The position numbers were made by a program, and so were the translations under genes. The notes under the pieces are model-generated. The model ran no database searches. It was not told the DNA's origin and saw only the letters and a list, made by a program, of their open reading frames with translations. 11,076 bases of DNA. Source: an uncultured archaeon. Its GTDB lineage: Archaea > Asgardarchaeota > Heimdallarchaeia > Heimdallarchaeales > Heimdallarchaeaceae. Shown here in pieces: positions 2,384-11,076 of the stretch. Location: the NCBI GenBank assembly GCA_964534625.1, contig CAZHRF010000004.1:116941-128016 (forward strand), in the 5' to 3' direction. Positions within the stretch are counted from its first letter, which is position 1. The number at the start of each line of letters is the position of its first letter.

Positions 2384-3019
2384 ATGGTCTCAAAGAATGA
2401 ACTTTTTTCCAGAGCTCTAGAAGTAATAAGTGATCTTCTAGAAGGAAATAACAGGTTTGTTAATGAAACTTGTACTGCAAACTTAACTAGATCGCGTAGA
2501 TTAGAACTATTAAAAGGTCAAGAACCAATAGCTACGATTTTAACATGTAGTGATTCTCGCGTAATGCCTGGATATATCTTTGATCAAGGTCTCGGTAACC
2601 TATTTATTATTCGAACTGCTGGTGAAGCTCTAGATGACATTAGTTTAGCTAGTCTAGAGTATGGTGTTGAACATCTAAAGACTCCTTTACTCGTTGTATT
2701 GGGACATACTGATTGTGGCGCTGTTAAAGCCACTGTATCTAATGCAAATGTTAATGGCCATCTTCCGTTGTTGATAGAGAAAATAAACCCAGCAGTCACT
2801 TGTTGTAAAAATATTTACAGAACATCTGATGGGTTATTTTGTAATGAAGTTAGTAAAGAAAATGTCCTTGAAATTGCTGAAATTCTTCCCTCTCTTTCAG
2901 AACCAATCCAAGATGCTGTAAACAATAAGTCAACAGTAATTATTCCTGCTATGTATGATTTAGAATCTGGAAAAGTTGAAATCTTATTTGATGTAAAATC
3001 ACACTTAAAAAATATATAA
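2384..3019 (+). CDS. Beta-class carbonic anhydrase
   Basis: Zn-ligand motifs CSDSRV and HTDCGAV, plus L.EGN.RF, GQ.P, GLGNLF.IRTAG, SLEYGV..L and YDL.SG.V. Confidence 0.95.
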   Translation: MVSKNELFSRALEVISDLLEGNNRFVNETCTANLTRSRRLELLKGQEPIATILTCSDSRVMPGYIFDQGLGNLFIIRTAGEALDDISLASLEYGVEHLKTPLLVVLGHTDCGAVKATVSNANVNGHLPLLIEKINPAVTCCKNIYRTSDGLFCNEVSKENVLEIAEILPSLSEPIQDAVNNKSTVIIPAMYDLESGKVEILFDVKSHLKNI

Positions 3020-3121: not shown

Positions 3122-3697
3122 TTATCTATCCTCTTTTTTTTTATCAAGGAAAGAATGCACTTGGTTGATAATGTCCTCTATTATATCCTGTATTCCCATT
3201 TTTTGGCCCCTTCTTCGTAGTTGTTCTATACATATACGATCCCTATTTCGTACAAAAACTGCTAAAGCGTCTTCTATGTCTTGTTCAGAACCAAATTTGG
3301 CTTTCCATAAAATAGTATTTTCTGGATGAGAAATTTTTACTTTAATACCATTGTAAATTTCATCAATAGCCATATCAATACTTTTTTTATCCTCAGACGA
3401 ATAAATACCTTTTAGATCAATACGAAACATTCCTTCCTTAAGAAAGAAAGTACAATGAGATTGTTCATCTAAACCTAGTAAATCATTTAAGGTAGCATCA
3501 AAACCATTATTTTGTAAAAAATCAATAAAATGTTGTCGATCTAATTGATGATGATCAATAATGATATCAATATCCATTGTCATACGAGTTCTGCCAGTGA
3601 CGATAACAGAAACTCCACCCACTATTACATAGGGAATAGACTGGGTGGAGAAATAAGCACAGAGTTTTTTGAGTGATTTGGAGATAGGATCAATCAT
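3122..3697 (-). CDS. Nucleotidyltransferase-fold protein (DUF6036/AbiEii-like)
   Basis: YVIVGGVSV..TGR.R.T.DIDII motif; C-terminal PE..I..K...G...D..DA. Confidence 0.8.
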   Translation of the reverse strand: MIDPISKSLKKLCAYFSTQSIPYVIVGGVSVIVTGRTRMTMDIDIIIDHHQLDRQHFIDFLQNNGFDATLNDLLGLDEQSHCTFFLKEGMFRIDLKGIYSSEDKKSIDMAIDEIYNGIKVKISHPENTILWKAKFGSEQDIEDALAVFVRNRDRICIEQLRRRGQKMGIQDIIEDIINQVHSFLDKKKEDR

Positions 3698-3881
3698 TAT
3701 TTTTTCTACTCCTCTTTTTACGAATTTTTTCTAATGATAAACAAAACTTAATGAAATTTGAGGCTTCTTTAGTTAATTCATCGGTAGTGAATTGTCTAGC
3801 CCTATATGCTGTCTCCATCACTTCTAGCCTCCTTTGATAGATTCTCTTCTCTTTCTGTGTCTTTACAGTATCTTCCATCAT
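3690..3881 (-). CDS. Small basic helical protein, probable partner of the nucleotidyltransferase
   Basis: 63-aa ORF overlapping the start of the NTase by 8 bp, a TA-like two-gene layout. No recognisable motif. Confidence 0.55.
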   Translation of the reverse strand: MMEDTVKTQKEKRIYQRRLEVMETAYRARQFTTDELTKEASNFIKFCLSLEKIRKKRSRKNND

Positions 3882-4032
3882 AATAGAATAGTTTCGGGAT
3901 TAAATAAAGTTTGCTTCGTGTAAATCAGGATGGCAATTTTAACATCGTTAAGTGCAACCCTTTATAATCTTGGAAAAAATGAAAACAGAAAAGCCTACAA
4001 ATAAAACAAAAATATTATCATACTTATGTAAG

Positions 4033-4212
4033 GTAAGTGTTTCATCCCCTATTTAGATTAGACCAATAAAGAAACGGAGGCACATTTATGTGAAGAAAAT
4101 AAACAATTTCAAATAAACCTCGGAATTTATGAAATATATCACCAACAGTTCTCCCTTCAACTGACGCCTAGGGGTGAAAAACGTACTATGTAAGTGTTTC
4201 ATCCCCTATTTA
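4033..4212. repeat. Direct and inverted repeat cluster (MITE-like element or recombination site)
   Basis: gtaagtgtttcatcccctattta occurs exactly at 4033-4055 and 4190-4212. An imperfect inverted copy taggggtgaaaaacgtac lies at 4169-4186. Confidence 0.75.
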
Positions 4213-4467
4213 CATTAAACTAGGAACAAAACGGAGAAACGGACTGTAAGGAAAATAAATCCGTATTGGAACCATTGAAAAGTAGGGGTTGTTTAGACTA
4301 GTTTTAACCTTAAGGTTTAAACGGGTATACCTTCTTGGATAGTCTCCTATACAAGTACTTCCCACTTTATCGGCAGTTGAAAAGATAAAAAGTTCTAATG
4401 GAAAAAGCAAAAAGTGTAATCGGTGTTGAATTGACACATAATGTTTTTATAACGTGAAAATAAAAAA

Positions 4468-4897
4468 AAAGAGAATAACTCAGAAAGGCAAAATTTTCTA
4501 GTTTAAGTAGACGAACAGTAAACACACTCAAATAAGAAATCAAATGGGTCTATACACATGTATTCACCCAGCCACTGACTGATGAAATGAAGGATATATT
4601 AAAGAGAGAACAATTAACCCCTATAGGAACGACTATACCAACCCAAGTGTTCAAGAAGGTTATACAAACAATAACTGATCCATCTTTAGGTGTGGCACTC
4701 CAGCTAGTATATGTAACAGGCATACGCCCACATGAACTATTATCATCCATCTGAAAGGGACAGACCTTCTAGCATGGGCACAAAAAGGCAGAAAAGATGA
4801 AAGGAAAACTATGAACCCTATGAACCCATCTATAAACGAAGAAGAACAGCAAGAGAAGGGGACAGAGTTACAAAGGTTGTTATATCGTTCTTCCTAA
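4468..4897 (+). pseudogene. Tyrosine recombinase (Xer/Int family) fragment including the catalytic-Arg box I
   Basis: Reads SLSRRTVNTLK*EIKWVYTHVF...LGVALQLVYVTGIRPHELLS, then after a frameshift HLKGTDLL, i.e. L..TG.R..EL..L...D. Lesions: 1-nt deletion near 4495, TAA at 4533-4535, frameshift near 4747. No HxxR/Tyr box II. Confidence 0.82.
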
Positions 4898-4943
4898 TCT
4901 CATCCCACCATTTATTGTGTGTGTTTTCTTTTTACGTTGATAT

Positions 4944-7576
4944 CTATTGGTTAATAGTACAGCTGGAGTTCTTCTTTTTTATCTCTTTCAGTATCTCTTT
5001 TGCTTGCTGGTTCAAGGGATTACTTCTTACATCTAACCAGGTTAATTTTTCTAGTTGAATCAAACTCTCTGGGAGCGAGGTTAACTGATTATCTCTTAAA
5101 TACAGTTTCTGGAGGTTTTTCAGCTCATTTATACTTGCTGGGAGCGCGAGTAACTGGTTATTGCTTAAATACAGTTCCTGGAGGTTCTCGAGCCAGGTTA
5201 TACTTATTGGGAGCGAGTGTAACTGATTTGAGCTTAAATGTAGTGTTTGGAGGTTTTTGAGCCCACTTATACTCTCCGGGAGAAAGAGTAAATTATTCCA
5301 ACTTAAATTCAACTCGTGAAGGTTCTCGAGTTGACTTATATTTGTTGGGAGTGAGATTAACTTATTACCGCCTAAACTTAATGTCTGGAGGTTCTGGGGG
5401 CCACTAAAACTCTCTGGAAAAAAGGTTAACTGGTTCCCATTTAAATTCAGTGTCTGGAGGTTCTTCAGCTCACTTATACTCGGTGGCAGCGAGGTCAGCC
5501 CTTTCTCATATAATCCTAACCCTATTATGGTATTGTCTTGGATGACAACTCCAAACGCGTTTCTGTACATTTTTCCTACTACTGGTATTGTTCTCCCTAT
5601 TTGTTGTTCCAATTCTTCTAAGATGAGAATCTCTTCTTCCTTTACTGTACGCTTCATTACTATATCCTTCAAATCAGCATCTAGTTGTAGATTTAGTGTT
5701 TTTTTGCTGTTCAGTTCTTGTAGCATGTTTAGTGTTGTTCTGTTATATTGATCTAGTGGATTATCCCCTAAATTCAGGTACTGGAGGTTCTTGAGTTCAC
5801 TTATACTCGGTGGCAGCGAGGTCAGCCCTTTCCCATATAATCCTAGTTCTGTTATACTATTGTCTTGGATGACAACTCCAAATGTGTTTCTGTACATTTT
5901 TCCTACTACTGGTATTGTTCTCCCTATTTGTTGTTCTAATTCTTCTAAGATGAGAATCTCTTCTTCCTTTACTGTACGCTTCATTACTATATCCTTCAAA
6001 TCAGCATCTAGTTGTAGATTTAGTGTTTTTTTGCTGTTCAGTTCTTGTAGCATGTTTAGTGTTGTTCTGTTATATTGATCTAGTGGATTGTCTCTTAAAT
6101 TCAGTTGCTGGAGGCTAGTAAGCCTCGTTATACTCGCGGGGAGAGAGTGTAACTGGTTTTCTGATAAATTCAAGTACTGGAGGTTCTTCAGCCTAGTTAT
6201 ACTCGCGGGGAGAGAGTTCAACTGGTTATTGCTTAAATACAGTTTCTGGAGGCTAGTAAGCCTAGTTATACTCGCTGGGAGAGAGTTCAACTGGTTATTG
6301 CTTAAATACAGGTACTGGAGGTTCTTAAGCCTAGTTATACTCGCGGGGAGAGAGGTTAACTGATTTTTACCTAAATTCAGGTACTGGAGGTTCTCGAGCC
6401 CGGTCAAACTCTCTGGGAGAGAATTCAACTTGTTCCATCTTAAATCTAGTGTCTGGAGGTTCTGGAGCCTCGTTATACTCGCTGGGAGAGAGGTTAACTT
6501 ATTTTCTCCTAGATACAAGTCTCGCAAGTTCTCGAGCCTTGTTATACTCTTTGGGAGAGAGGTTAACCTTTTATTATATAGTCCTAGTCCTATTATAGTA
6601 TTGCCTTGGATGACAACTCCAAGGTATTATGGTTTATTTTTTTTACTACTGGTATTACGCCTGTTTCTTTTTCTAATTCTACTAAGCCTATAATCTCTTC
6701 TTCCTTTAGTGTATGCTTGATTTCTGCGTCCTTAAAATTATAATCTAATTGTAGGTCTAGTGTTGGTTGATTGTTCAGTTCTTTTAAGACTTTGAGTGTT
6801 TTTGCGTCAGAACATAGTGGATTTGCCCGTAGATCCAACTCTCGGAGGTTCTCCAGCTTGGTTATACTCGCTGGCAGAGAACGTAACTGATTCCAACGTA
6901 AATCCAGTTTCTGGAGGTTCTTCAGCCCACTTATACTCGCTGGGAGAGAGCGTAACTTGTTACATGATAAATCCAACTTTTGAAGGTTCTTGAGCCCACT
7001 TATACTCGCTGGGAGAGAGCGTAACTTGTTACATGATAAATCCAACTTTTGAAGGTTCTTGAGCCCACTTATACTCGCTGGGAGAGAGCGTAACTGATTT
7101 TCGTACAGAAATAGTTTCTGGAGGTTCTTCAGCCCACTTATACTCGCTGGGAGAGAGCGTAACTGATTTTCGTACAGAAATAGTTTCTGGAGGTTCTTCA
7201 GCCCACTTATACTCGCTGGGAGAGAGCGTAACTCGTTATCGCCTAAATCCAGGTACTGGAGGTTCTTAAGCCTAGTTATACTCGCTGGGAGAGAGTTGAA
7301 CCGATTTTTTCTTAAATTCAACTCTTGAAGGTTCTTAAGCCCACTTATACTCGCTGGGAGAGAGGTTAACCATCTATTATATAATCCTAGTCCTGTTATA
7401 CTATTGTCTTGGATGACAACTCCAAATGTATTATATTTTATCTCTCCTATTATTGGTATGGTTCTCCATACTTGATGTTCTAGTACTTCTAGGATCTCTT
7501 TTTCTTTATTAAACAGTGGTGTTCCCTTGAAAGAACTGATCTTTTCTGCCTCTTTCCTTTCTCTGTTTGATGGCAT
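4944..7576 (-). CDS. Multi-module leucine-rich repeat protein (~877 aa if repaired), split by a 1-nt frameshift at ~6621
   Basis: ORFs 6593..7576 and 4944..6527 join if one base is restored. At 6619-6623 the sequence is ccaag, whereas the three paralogous modules have ccaaa (NTFGVVIQDN). Four cap+LRR modules with 8, 7, 1 and 7 repeats of 23 aa (L.SLP.SI..L.NLQ.L.L..N). Confidence 0.88.
5442..6089 (-). repeat. 327-bp (109-codon) tandem duplication inside the LRR gene
   Basis: 5442-5762 vs 5769-6089. PLDQYNRTTLNML...GRTIPVVGKMYRN is repeated exactly at protein level. Confidence 0.93.
6905..7234 (-). repeat. 69-bp tandem LRR units including two exactly duplicated pairs
   Basis: KLFLYENQLRSLPASISGLKNLQ x2 and KLDLSCNKLRSLPASISGLKNLQ x2, essentially identical in DNA within each pair. 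Confidence 0.93.
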
Positions 7577-7601
7577 TTTCTTCTCTGCTTTTTTATCTTC
7601 A

Positions 7602-7613
7602 CCTTATAAAAAG
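7602..7613 (-). promoter_or_regulatory. Putative TATA box of the LRR gene
   Basis: Minus-strand TTTTTATAA about 30 bp upstream of the ATG at 7576, the usual spacing for near-leaderless archaeal transcripts. Confidence 0.4.
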
Positions 7614-7898
7614 GTTATGTCATCAATAGAAGCCTTATGCTTTGCTTTTTTTCACGTATCATTTGGCTAGTTTTTTAACTTTAAAATGAGCATTTAGATA
7701 TTATAGGTAAATTTTAACTTAATTATCCTTTCTCTCTATACTTGATAAGAAAGGTCTATCATGTTTAGGTTTTCCTCTCATAGGCTTGAGATGGTCTTTT
7801 TTTATCCCTCTCAGCGTATAAAAACTATAAGGCTAGTATAACCATAGGTTATTCATTTTCAAGGTATTTATAAATGAGTATTTTCACCCATAACATAC

Positions 7899-8749
7899 AT
7901 GCAATATCAATATAGACTTCATGGAGAAGAACCTAATTCTGTAGTATTACTTCACGGAGGCCCTGGTGCCTGGGGAGAGATATTTTCTCTCGCAGATCTA
8001 CTAAAAGATAGATATGGACTAATCGAGCCATTTCAAATGCAACCTTCGTTAGATGGGCAACTAGAAGAGTTACATGGTATTATTAAAGAGAACGCTTTCT
8101 CTCCAGTAGCCCATAGGTTTTTAATGGGGTGCTTGGTTGGCTTATTCATTCTCTGCACGATATTCTAGTGAAAAATTAGTTTCTAAACTCATTCTAATAG
8201 GTAGTGGCTCATACACAAAGACTATTATAATGAACTAGTTATAAATCCAAGAGAACGAACGAATACAGCCCAATTAAGACTTTCTGAACAATTATTTACT
8301 GATATTAACAATCCCCTAATCAATGACAAAGAAAGTATTATTCTTTCATTAGGAAAATTATATCATTATATCGACCAATATGACCCCGAACCTTTTGAAT
8401 CGGCAGAACTTGTGGATCTTCCCTTTTCAAGCTACCAAGTTGATCGAAGCACATTTTTTAATCAATGTTTGAATGAAGTTATATAAATGCGCAAATCTGG
8501 AGAATTATTAGACTATGCTAAAAAAATCACTATACCTGTTGTGGCAATTCATGAGTTCTTTTGGGTACTTTTGGGTACGTGACCCATGGTGTGTATGATC
8601 CTCATCCTGCAGATGGTGTTATTAAACCTCTAAGAGAGACTATTGCTAATTTTCAATGGCATTTGTTAAAAAAATGTGGTCACAAACCTTGGAAGGAAAA
8701 ACAAGCGAAAGAAGATTTTTATCACGTTCTTAAGAGTGTAATTAACTGA
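7899..8749 (+). pseudogene. Alpha/beta hydrolase pseudogene
   Basis: VLLHGGPG; after a frameshift IGF*WGAWLA (G-x-S-x-G with the Ser codon now TAA, 8122-8124); KLILIGS; a second frameshift near 8218; TAA at 8484; ITIPVVAIH [35-bp insert] GVYDPHP; CGHKPW.E. Confidence 0.88.
8550..8588. other. 31-bp insertion flanked by a CATG duplication
   Basis: catg-agttcttttgggtacttttgggtacgtgacc-catg. Removing 35 bp restores VVAIHGVYDPHP in frame. Confidence 0.75.
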
Positions 8750-8927
8750 ACTCCCCCACCCAAAGGTAGATATTTTACTTTTCTACGAAGGTTGCCCATA
8801 ACTATAATTCTTTTATCCTCTTTTCAGGCTTCGTTATTATTTTAAATATTGATTTTCTGATTTATTGAATGAAGAAACTTCTTCTGCCATTGTTTACCTT
8901 TGCTTGTTAAACTAATATTTTTGACTA

Positions 8928-9434
8928 TTACTGATTAAAATGAGTTTCAAAGGTTTTTTTGAGTTCATCAATTGAGCTAGGGGTTGGGTATATTTGCACT
9001 CCTTGATCTTTCATTATACTTGTGCTTAGTCTTTTAAAATGATAATCATCTACTAAAATTACTTTGCAATCTTTTTGAGTTGCTGTTGCAAGATGTAAAG
9101 CATCTGAACCATAGAGATTATATTTCCAAATGAACTTTTTAGATAGTGATATGTTATCATCAGTAACTTTTACTAATTCAATCATATTGGTATTAATCAA
9201 TTTCATTAAATCTTTCTCTATGAAAAATTGCAATTGCTTTGCTTCTTCTTTTGTAATTTCATTTTGATTCTCCCGTTTCTTTATCCCTCTTGTAATCTCA
9301 ATATTGCTCCACACAGAACTAATACACAAGATATTTTCATCTCTTATACAATATTCAACTGTTTCACTTCCTTTTTCTTCATAGAATAAGTTCCAAAGAG
9401 CAGAGCTTTCAAGATAACATTTAACTTTCTTCAT
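8928..9434 (-). CDS. vapC: PIN-domain ribonuclease toxin (VapC-like)
   Basis: YLESSAL...EE.GS, S.....EI, L.GSDALHLATA, ILVDD. Overlaps the upstream antitoxin by 14 bp. Confidence 0.88.
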   Translation of the reverse strand: MKKVKCYLESSALWNLFYEEKGSETVEYCIRDENILCISSVWSNIEITRGIKKRENQNEITKEEAKQLQFFIEKDLMKLINTNMIELVKVTDDNISLSKKFIWKYNLYGSDALHLATATQKDCKVILVDDYHFKRLSTSIMKDQGVQIYPTPSSIDELKKTFETHFNQ

Positions 9435-9654
9435 GATGCAAATCCTCTAGTCCTTTTAGTTTTTTGTCTTTTTTAGTGAAATAATTTCTTACCTCACTTC
9501 TTGTTTTCCAAGATACATCCTTCTGTTCTTCTTGCATTAATTCATAAATACCTGCTTTCAATGCTTCACTTATTGAAGAATACTTCCCCTTCGCAACAAG
9601 TCCTTCCAAAAATTTTTGCTCTTCTTCTGTTAGTTTAACTGAAGTAATTGCCAT
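9421..9654 (-). CDS. Ribbon-helix-helix antitoxin (CopG/ParD-like, VapB role)
   Basis: TSVKLTEE...LE.LV..GKYSS.SEALKAGI.EL; lies directly upstream of the PIN gene. Confidence 0.85.
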   Translation of the reverse strand: MAITSVKLTEEEQKFLEGLVAKGKYSSISEALKAGIYELMQEEQKDVSWKTRSEVRNYFTKKDKKLKGLEDLHHEES

Positions 9655-9739
9655 TTTTCCACACCATGTATTTTATTTGTACCAAATATTATTCTATATG
9701 TATTAATTCTTTTTGTTTTCTTTCTTAGTACATATGTAC

Positions 9740-9916
9740 TTATGCAACCATCAAATCCCATAGATTAATATTAGCTTTCTTTGCTGCATCTTCCAACGAA
9801 TTCCCTTCTTCGTAATATTCAAGAAAACAGTTAACTTTCTTCATGATGTAACTCCTCAAGTCCTTTTAGCTTTTTTTCTTTTTTAGTGAAATATTTTCTT
9901 ATCTCGCTTCTTGTTT
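9740..9916 (-). pseudogene. Relic second copy of the antitoxin/toxin junction fused to a UPF0175-like fragment
   Basis: 9818-9916 repeats 9408-9506 (offset 410, about 10 mismatches in 99 nt). The duplicated toxin start MKKVNCFLE runs into YYEEGNSLEDAAKKANINLWDLMVA*, similar to the UPF0175 motif G..S...AA..A....W. Confidence 0.7.
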
Positions 9917-9960
9917 CAATTTTGGGGTAGTTCCTTGTTTTGCATAGTTTGTTACTGCAG

Positions 9961-10484
9961 TATACTAGCTGGAGTGCCACACCTAAAGATGGATCAGCTA
10001 GTGTTCATTGTATGACCTTCTTGAACACCTGAGTTGGTATAGTCGTTCCTATAGGGGTTAATTGTTCTCTCTTTAATATATCCTTCATTTCATCAGTCAG
10101 TGGCTGGGTGAATACATGTGTATAGACCCATTTGATTTCTTGTTTGAGTGTGTTTACTGTTCGTCTACTTAAACTAGAAAAATTTTGCCTTTCTGAGTTA
10201 TTCTCTTTCTGTCGGTGAAAAAACTTCCGTATTTCATCTGTTGTTACATCTTGTATTTGTCCCAGTCAGACGTTCCATAAAGATATTTTCTTTTGAATAG
10301 TTGATGCAGCCAGTCCATGTTTTCTGGCTGTCCACCTAATCTTATCTAATAACACTCTTTGTATCTCCTGTTCAATGCCAGAGGTGATTCGTACGTCCGT
10401 TTCATTGGTATATGTCATATATAGCCTTTTTTCTTCCTCTTTTTCATTCGCTGTATTTTTTCGATGTGTAACACGTATTCTCAT
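9961..10484 (-). pseudogene. Tyrosine recombinase N-terminal/core-binding region, truncated just before the catalytic Arg
   Basis: The 72-aa ORF continues in frame past TGA (10266-10268): GLAASTIQKKISLWNV*LGQIQDVTTDEIRKFF...SLSRRTVNTLKQEIKWVY...KKVIQ*TLADPSLGVALQLVY. This has the SAM-like pattern GL...TI / VT..EI..F / LS..T.N and is homologous to the 4468 copy that carries TGIRPHELL. Confidence 0.8.
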
Positions 10485-10637: not shown

Positions 10638-11076
10638 TTATTTATAGACGGAACACCCGTTCTTTTTTAACACTGCCAAGATCTTCTGTGCCTTCCTATC
10701 TAATTCATTCCCTTCAATCGATAATTTCTTTAGTTTTGGTAGCCTGGTCAAACTCTCTGGGAGAGAGCGTAACTGGTTAACTGCTAAAATCAACTCTTGA
10801 AGGTTCTTGAGCCCACTCAAACTCTCTGGGAGAGAGCGTAACTGGTTTTTGTACAGATTCAACACTTGCAAGTTCTCGAGCATGGTTATACTCTCTGGGA
10901 CAGAGGTTAACTGATTTTTTCCTAAATTCAAGTACTGGAGGTTCTCGAGCCTCGTTATACTCTCTGGGAGAGAGTTGAATTCATTTCCACCTAAATCCAG
11001 TACCTGGAGGTTTATAAGCCCAGTTATACTCTCTGGGAGAGAGCGTAACTGGTTTTCGTACAGATTCAACACTTGC
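10638..11076 (-). CDS. Leucine-rich repeat protein, C-terminal part (5' end beyond the window)
   Basis: 23-aa repeats LRSLPESI..L.NLQ.L.L..N and C-cap N.L...A..IL..LKK, as in the 4944 gene. Confidence 0.9.
   Translation of the reverse strand, partial: QVLNLYENQLRSLPESITGLINLQVLDLGGNEFNSLPESITRLENLQYLNLGKNQLTSVPESITMLENLQVLNLYKNQLRSLPESLSGLKNLQELILAVNQLRSLPESLTRLPKLKKLSIEGNELDRKAQKILAVLKKNGCSVYK

Follow-up and report, generated by a model that had tools for sequence, protein, structure and literature searches.

The window examined here is a stretch of 11,076 nucleotides (nt) that makes up the final 11 kb of contig C4 in the assembly of a Heimdallarchaeia archaeon (G000; 3.37 Mb, 120 contigs, ~90% complete). 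Between positions 4468 and 10484 it holds two facing pieces of a tyrosine-recombinase gene, accompanied by two leucine-rich repeat (LRR) genes, LRR-A and LRR-B. This locus is most likely a decayed LRR-cap switch cassette with a dead recombinase, scrambled once. As far as its sequence tells, the recombinase lacks its former catalytic core; what remains is a fossil rather than a working switch. The 5.25-kb segment between the two pieces is a one-off scar and not a natural invertible unit. The recombinase pieces are:

4468-4711, plus strand: left arm, mid-recombinase, spanning the last part of the core-binding domain up to LQLVY; one nucleotide is deleted near 4497 and a TAA stands at 4533-4535
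4712-4745, plus strand: box I with the catalytic Arg (GIRPHELLS), in single copy
4745-4897, plus strand: C-terminal tail of the recombinase, out of frame with box I after a deletion of ~152 codons, stop at 4895-4897
9961-10208, minus strand: right arm, with a 3-nt insertion that reads TGA at 10005-10007
10209-10484, minus strand: N-terminus of the recombinase, in single copy, ATG at 10484, TGA at codon 73 (10266-10268)

The arms form an inverted repeat, identical at 238/248 positions (96%) and spaced 5,249 nt apart, as a sequence-only reading of this DNA had described (two near-identical recombinase pieces of ~245 bp facing each other). They differ by six substitutions, one 1-nt indel and one 3-nt indel; six of these eight differences fall within 34 nt (P 0.004), and the longest exact stretch common to both arms is 109 bp. 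Nowhere else in the 3.37-Mb assembly does a contig hold an inverted repeat of 150 bp or more with 90% or more identity, and the arm fragment has no third copy there. The arms are therefore not scattered debris, a possibility that the same reading had raised. Both copies must also be present in the reads, since the first 30 nt of the Logan contig L123, common to five runs and identical to 8558-9990, are precisely the final 30 nt that the two arms have in common, as expected of a branch at k=31.

Searches with the separate pieces gave no match in Pfam, no match in a word-based search among longer proteins, and an integrase in PHROGs only at E 0.17. Some matches to PDB sequences were rejected as chance coiled-coil matches. 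An exhaustive profile search, however, found P0005 and P0006, two intact PF00589 proteins of 347-348 amino acids (aa) that align to both pieces at 28-38% identity. Both pieces match these recombinases at E 1e-10 to 1e-12, and a profile of the family matches them at E 1e-16 and 1e-14.

The right piece runs from ATG 10484 through the N-terminal domain and stops at LQLVY, in agreement with what had been read from the sequence, and is interrupted by TGA at codons 73 and 160. In the left piece a frameshift and a TAA are followed by box I, whose GIRPHE (4719-4736) is invariant in 24 relatives and supplies the Arg that marks a tyrosine recombinase. This piece does lack the N-terminus and does run into box I, but the 'LK..DL' once taken as a continuation of box I belongs to the tail beyond the catalytic Tyr. 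Against a profile of this post-Tyr tail, the 14-mer at 4745 scores highest among 6.7 million six-frame genome 14-mers, and its frame terminates in a stop at a position equivalent to that of P0006. With the ~152 codons deleted between box I and tail, the Lys, the box II YDLRH, the Trp and the Tyr are all gone. They are conserved in the 24 relatives; the catalytic residues are K176, R264, W287 and Y297 in P0005 numbering.

The missing core was not found elsewhere in the ~90% complete assembly, where a profile search reached a best E of 0.35. Nor does this assembly contain a match to PF00589, which the same search finds in all 14 control genomes, and no tyrosine recombinase that could act in trans was found there. 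It does contain three serine-recombinase (resolvase) genes, but serine recombinases are not expected to act on these sequences. As a side observation, the lack of any PF00589 match means that no XerA-like dimer resolvase was found in the assembly either.

An in-silico crossover in the 109-bp core of the repeat yields a single frame of 187 codons from the ATG to box I, with one TGA (codon 73) and no catalytic core. Inverting 4712-9960 thus makes the N-terminus, the shared part and the Arg box colinear, as had been proposed, and the rebuilt gene remains damaged and without box II, as had been foreseen. The same operation does more than was claimed for it. It also restores the gene layout of a family of intact recombinases from other Asgard archaea, to which we now turn.

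The named relatives come from Hermod-, Loki- and Helarchaeota, and their loci include one in Hel_GB_B. The clade is patchy: no member was found in 82 genomes of the class, and 400 genomes of the phylum gave four clear cases. Intact members are 310-420 aa long. LRR units of 69 bp (23 residues) lie nearby in 14 of the 16 distinct family loci, not all of them independent since some are kin, and the two loci without units offer very little flanking sequence; near distant recombinases such units were found at 0 of ~70 loci. Upstream units always share the strand of the recombinase and downstream units always lie opposite to it, never the reverse. One side is often a start-less LRR cassette, and those of L007, L008, L009, L014 and L015 begin at an identical unit register. 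The LRR genes include TIR-, PIN- and NTPase-like fusions.

The expressed LRR body is found upstream in L008, L009 and L015 and downstream in L007, L010 and L014, while the cap type follows the side of the recombinase. For example, the sister Helarchaeota loci L014 and L015 have the same upstream cap, which is silent in L014 and expressed in L015. That the body side varies while the cap stays with the recombinase matches what inversion of a cap-recombinase-cap unit would predict, in a comparison made between species and not within one population. We infer that the family enzyme is an invertase that swaps LRR C-terminal ends. Three further observations concern these loci. Hel_GB_B has a second, decayed recombinase copy (L102, G125:C2:1-2208) with eight stops and 78% identity to its intact copy, so that cassette decay recurs. 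In L010 and L011, two assemblies of the same intact locus, the LRR arrays are unequal in length near the cap by a single 69-bp unit (~1243-1312), which is either real unit variation or an assembly difference. At L091, MNT-HEPN, UPF0175-DUF3368 and a PIN-LRR fusion stand beside the recombinase.

Where would such an enzyme act? The units point to a candidate in the codons for L-x-x-L-P-E-S. The Leu before the Pro is encoded by CTC in 78/79 recombinase-linked units and in 20/21 units of the window and contig C24 of the same assembly, and by the same codon in 20/151 control units. The controls comprise 29 loci from related genomes where a class-wide search gave no recombinase of this family, and include an array on contig C38 of our own assembly. 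The Glu that comes next is GAG in 72/73 linked units, 6/6 of those in the window and C24, and 20/65 controls. In the unlinked C38 array of the same genome, the values are 1/9 for CTC and 0/6 for GAG, and at other Leu positions of the linked units CTC is used in 26-33%. CTC and GAG are reverse complements flanking the Pro codon. The C24 gene and LRR-B share an exact stretch of 69 bp that terminates within this motif, which also marks the end of contig C24. Each LRR unit thus likely holds a crossover site. The arms, by contrast, are duplicated coding sequence and not recombinase sites, the family site signature sitting in the 69-bp LRR units.

The LRR parts of the window fit this family pattern once the segment is turned back:

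4944-7576, minus strand: LRR-B, a four-module LRR gene converging on the recombinase tail, with a -1 frameshift near 6620 (open reading frames 6593-7576 and 4944-6527)
7578-7620, minus strand: promoter/leader of LRR-B
10638-11076, minus strand: LRR-A, its final units and its cap, upstream of the recombinase in the same direction and running off the contig end
4436-4478, plus strand: orphan copy of an LRR-gene promoter/leader, 41/43 identical to C24:44103-44145 and 84% to 7578-7620

Between the end of LRR-A and the downstream start of the recombinase lie 154 bp; LRR-B ends ~46 bp from the stop of the tail and is convergent with it. The LRR-B units carry the family site motif, and contig C24 probably ends with the 5' part of LRR-A. 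LRR-A and LRR-B would be the two halves of one family cassette, in one copy each. Both arrays now lie on the minus strand, and not in opposite orientations as in the Int1- and shufflon-type switches described below; inverting 4712-9960 in silico gives LRR> Int> <LRR, as in the family.

The left arm is fused to more than recombinase sequence. The orphan promoter copy is joined to it through an 11-nt word shared at 4468-4478, from which it follows that the duplication took in at least the part from promoter to mid-recombinase, with shortening afterwards or a template switch during copying. A simple staggered-break inversion, in which the outer flanks were once adjacent and the arm alone was duplicated, was rejected on this account, as the promoter copy came along too. 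Divergence is 3-5% in the arm and likewise in the copied promoter. The past inversion between two paralogues suggested by the sequence-only reading is therefore upheld as a past rearrangement, with the 'paralogues' better described as a recent partial duplication. The right-arm variants at 9985-10025 form a 7-bp inverted repeat not present in the left arm, and the template switching that such hairpin-lengthening variants might suggest was set aside as not significant against random changes (P 0.066).

From these features we infer the following order of events. In its working form the cassette would have had a tyrosine recombinase gene flanked by two LRR arrays that face opposite ways. Its product would have recombined at a short site in the 69-bp units, inverting cap-recombinase-cap and giving the LRR protein its other C-terminal end. 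Part of the cassette, from promoter to mid-recombinase, may then have been duplicated in inverted orientation ~5 kb away. The duplicate may subsequently have lost its LRR gene and recombinase N-terminus by deletion across the 11-nt shared word, or have arisen by copying with template switching. A single crossover in the 109-bp core, or a single template-switch event, would then most likely have reversed the 5.25-kb interval. The recombinase has besides been stripped of its catalytic core and has acquired stops, and with both LRR arrays on one strand the switch geometry no longer exists.

Was the inner segment ever inverted? The present order probably arose by true inversion. That it arose by duplication and separate deletions, a sub-case of the decayed-cassette reading, seems to us rather unlikely. 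The inner 5.25 kb would then never have turned; the left piece would be the original and the right an inverted partial duplicate (promoter, LRR-A, N-terminus and arm), each having lost a different end, and the complementarity of the ends would be only apparent. This history takes one event fewer than duplication plus inversion, and it gains from the left arm being joined to its own LRR promoter, so that it once had an upstream LRR gene or a copy of one. The tilt towards a true inversion comes from antitoxin remains at the two junctions:

4398-4436, plus strand: 13 codons that may be the start of an RHH antitoxin truncated at the left junction (weak evidence)
9740-9960, minus strand: debris adjoining the right arm, made up of an RHH antitoxin paralog reduced to its C-terminal half, the start of a PIN gene and a UPF0175-like scrap

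The possible N-terminus on the left and the C-terminal half on the right are oriented as an inversion predicts. For 4398-4436 as an RHH antitoxin start, the protein profile gives P ~0.001, a post hoc value, and the DNA comparison P 0.04-0.09, which is not significant.

That the segment still flips as a phase-variable switch, by homologous recombination in the 109-bp core or through an unassembled recombinase, is very unlikely. The 96% identity of the arms, their exact core and the clustering of their differences would all suit continuing exchange. So would a second Logan contig, L005 (run SRR7048222), which has the order N-terminus, arm, antitoxin of the right side of the window and carries the left-arm TAA allele, its first 55 nt being different. 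This allele may reflect exchange between arms or a collapsed assembly bubble. Against flipping, all contigs examined show one and the same right-hand junction, PF00589 has no match in the assembly, and turning the segment would restore no working gene, as TGA 73 and the core deletion persist in either orientation. The earlier proposal of a candidate invertible locus bounded by these repeats is thus not supported: the arms are coding sequence without the family site, which sits in the LRR units, and the core is absent from the assembly.

An assembly error would mean that N-terminus, arm and box I are colinear in the true genome and that the assembler switched copies within the identical core; this, too, is very unlikely. 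The 109-bp core in a short-read metagenome bin invites such an error, and the swapped order would agree with the family layout. However, read pairs can span a core of 109 bp, L005 passes without a branch from the N-terminus via the arm into the antitoxin debris in the same order, and the duplication itself is present in the reads (L123).

Several points weigh against the decayed-cassette reading. The nearest intact recombinases share no more than 28-38% identity with the pieces, and an unbroken locus was found in 0/82 genomes of the class, the relatives in which the sequence-only reading had suggested looking for an intact copy. (In further searches the left piece showed no close relatives in 60 related genomes or in a wider genome contig collection, syntenic DNA was found for neither junction, and viral contigs gave weak generic matches and nothing specific to the recombinase family.) Both LRR bodies here seem to have promoters, whereas most relatives have one silent; LRR-B has its own, and that of LRR-A would lie across the contig gap which the link between C24 and LRR-A has to cross. 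The evidence for orientation comes from assembled contigs, not reads. After re-inversion the in-arm lesions all fall on one haplotype, which is uninformative, as 4/8 patterns give that result. Lastly, the fixity of the site motif could partly stem from shared ancestry of the arrays, although such ancestry does not account for the neighbouring synonymous positions, which vary.

Besides the cassette, the segment carries two passengers:

8928-9654, minus strand: intact pair of RHH antitoxin (9421-9654) and PIN toxin (8928-9434)
7899-8749, plus strand: broken gene with alpha/beta-hydrolase-like motifs, as judged from sequence, with an insertion sequence (IS) end remnant at ~8553-8587

A stretch of 16 kb has three copies of a ~99-bp RHH/PIN junction (9818-9916, 9408-9506 and C4:110428-110506), of which one is intact and two are scraps. 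With the RHH-PIN pair, a HEPN-MNT pair (1314-1980) and a DUF6036/DUF2204 nucleotidyltransferase with a small partner (3122-3881) make a toxin-antitoxin-rich island. The IS remnant interrupts the hydrolase-like gene with 33 nt. It belongs to an uncharacterised IS end with 13 genome matches (8553-8587, C4:111332-111366 and 11 others), most of them after AT and many at contig ends. An identical remnant sits at the breakpoint of a wHTH gene split by a radA-containing inversion a few kb left of the window, which was therefore probably IS-driven. The region is generally unstable, with LRR-B frameshifted, an IS end in a passenger gene and another at the nearby inversion. Other elements are a dispersed element of ~160 bp resembling a miniature inverted-repeat transposable element (4030-4190, with a second partial copy to ~4260 and 15 genome matches of at least 120 nt), and a different dispersed one of ~400 bp with many copies just upstream of the C24 LRR promoter (C24:43600-44003). 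Further left in the window are a DUF285 (BspA-like) repeat surface protein with a C-terminal membrane anchor (1-1223) and a beta-class carbonic anhydrase (2384-3019).

Taken alone, the 248-bp repeat is ordinary decay; what makes it valuable is that it points to an LRR-tied recombinase clade, which now reaches a Heimdallarchaeia genome. Comparing linked with control LRR units yields a concrete candidate recombination site. Tentatively, and with somewhat more doubt than conviction, we suggest that the clade may reshuffle LRR units combinatorially through per-unit candidate sites, giving populations a repertoire of LRR receptors, of which the mosaic LRR-B could be a frozen product in Heimdallarchaeia. 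If this is true, Asgard archaea have a recombinase-driven diversification of LRR sensor-like proteins. A literature search that lacked most subscription journals found no published Asgard or archaeal LRR inversion systems; one paper combining Asgard, LRR and integrase mentions only an LRR peptide on a mobile element. What appears to be new here is the site motif with its controls and a Heimdallarchaeia relic of the clade.

Among known systems, the split integrases of the SSV1/pNOB8 type are archaeal tyrosine-recombinase genes in pieces, with a short direct att repeat and a tRNA target. That the window, which likewise has such a gene in two pieces, shows one flanking an integrated element is practically out of the question: its repeat is an inverted 248-bp duplication, there is no tRNA gene in the window, no viral cargo and no intact catalytic C-terminal fragment, and the family is met in viral contigs only as weak generic matches. 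The sequence-only reading had rightly kept the two apart.

In the R64 shufflon (Rci, sfx sites, pilV) and similar invertons a tyrosine recombinase exchanges C-terminal cassettes at in-frame sites. The intact family, which resembles these more loosely than the Int1 region described below, would likewise exchange C-terminal cassettes at sites within the reading frame, and in the window too a conserved candidate DNA site in frame is shared by the partner cassettes. Unlike the shufflon, the family has its recombinase inside the presumed invertible unit and a candidate site in every 69-bp repeat, and here the enzyme is lost, with no intact recombinase found at the locus or in trans in the ~90% complete assembly. 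In the Int1 region of the haloarchaeal viruses phiCh1 (ORF34-36) and phiH1, inversion swaps the C-terminal ends of tail-fibre genes (PMC6210493). The copy in the window differs from it in being dead and rearranged and in that both LRR bodies appear to have promoters. The intact relatives resemble it closely in plan, with a central XerD-type recombinase between opposed repeat-rich genes, one of them uncoupled from a start (PMC6210493), though the substrate here is not tail fibres but cellular LRR genes of Asgard archaea.

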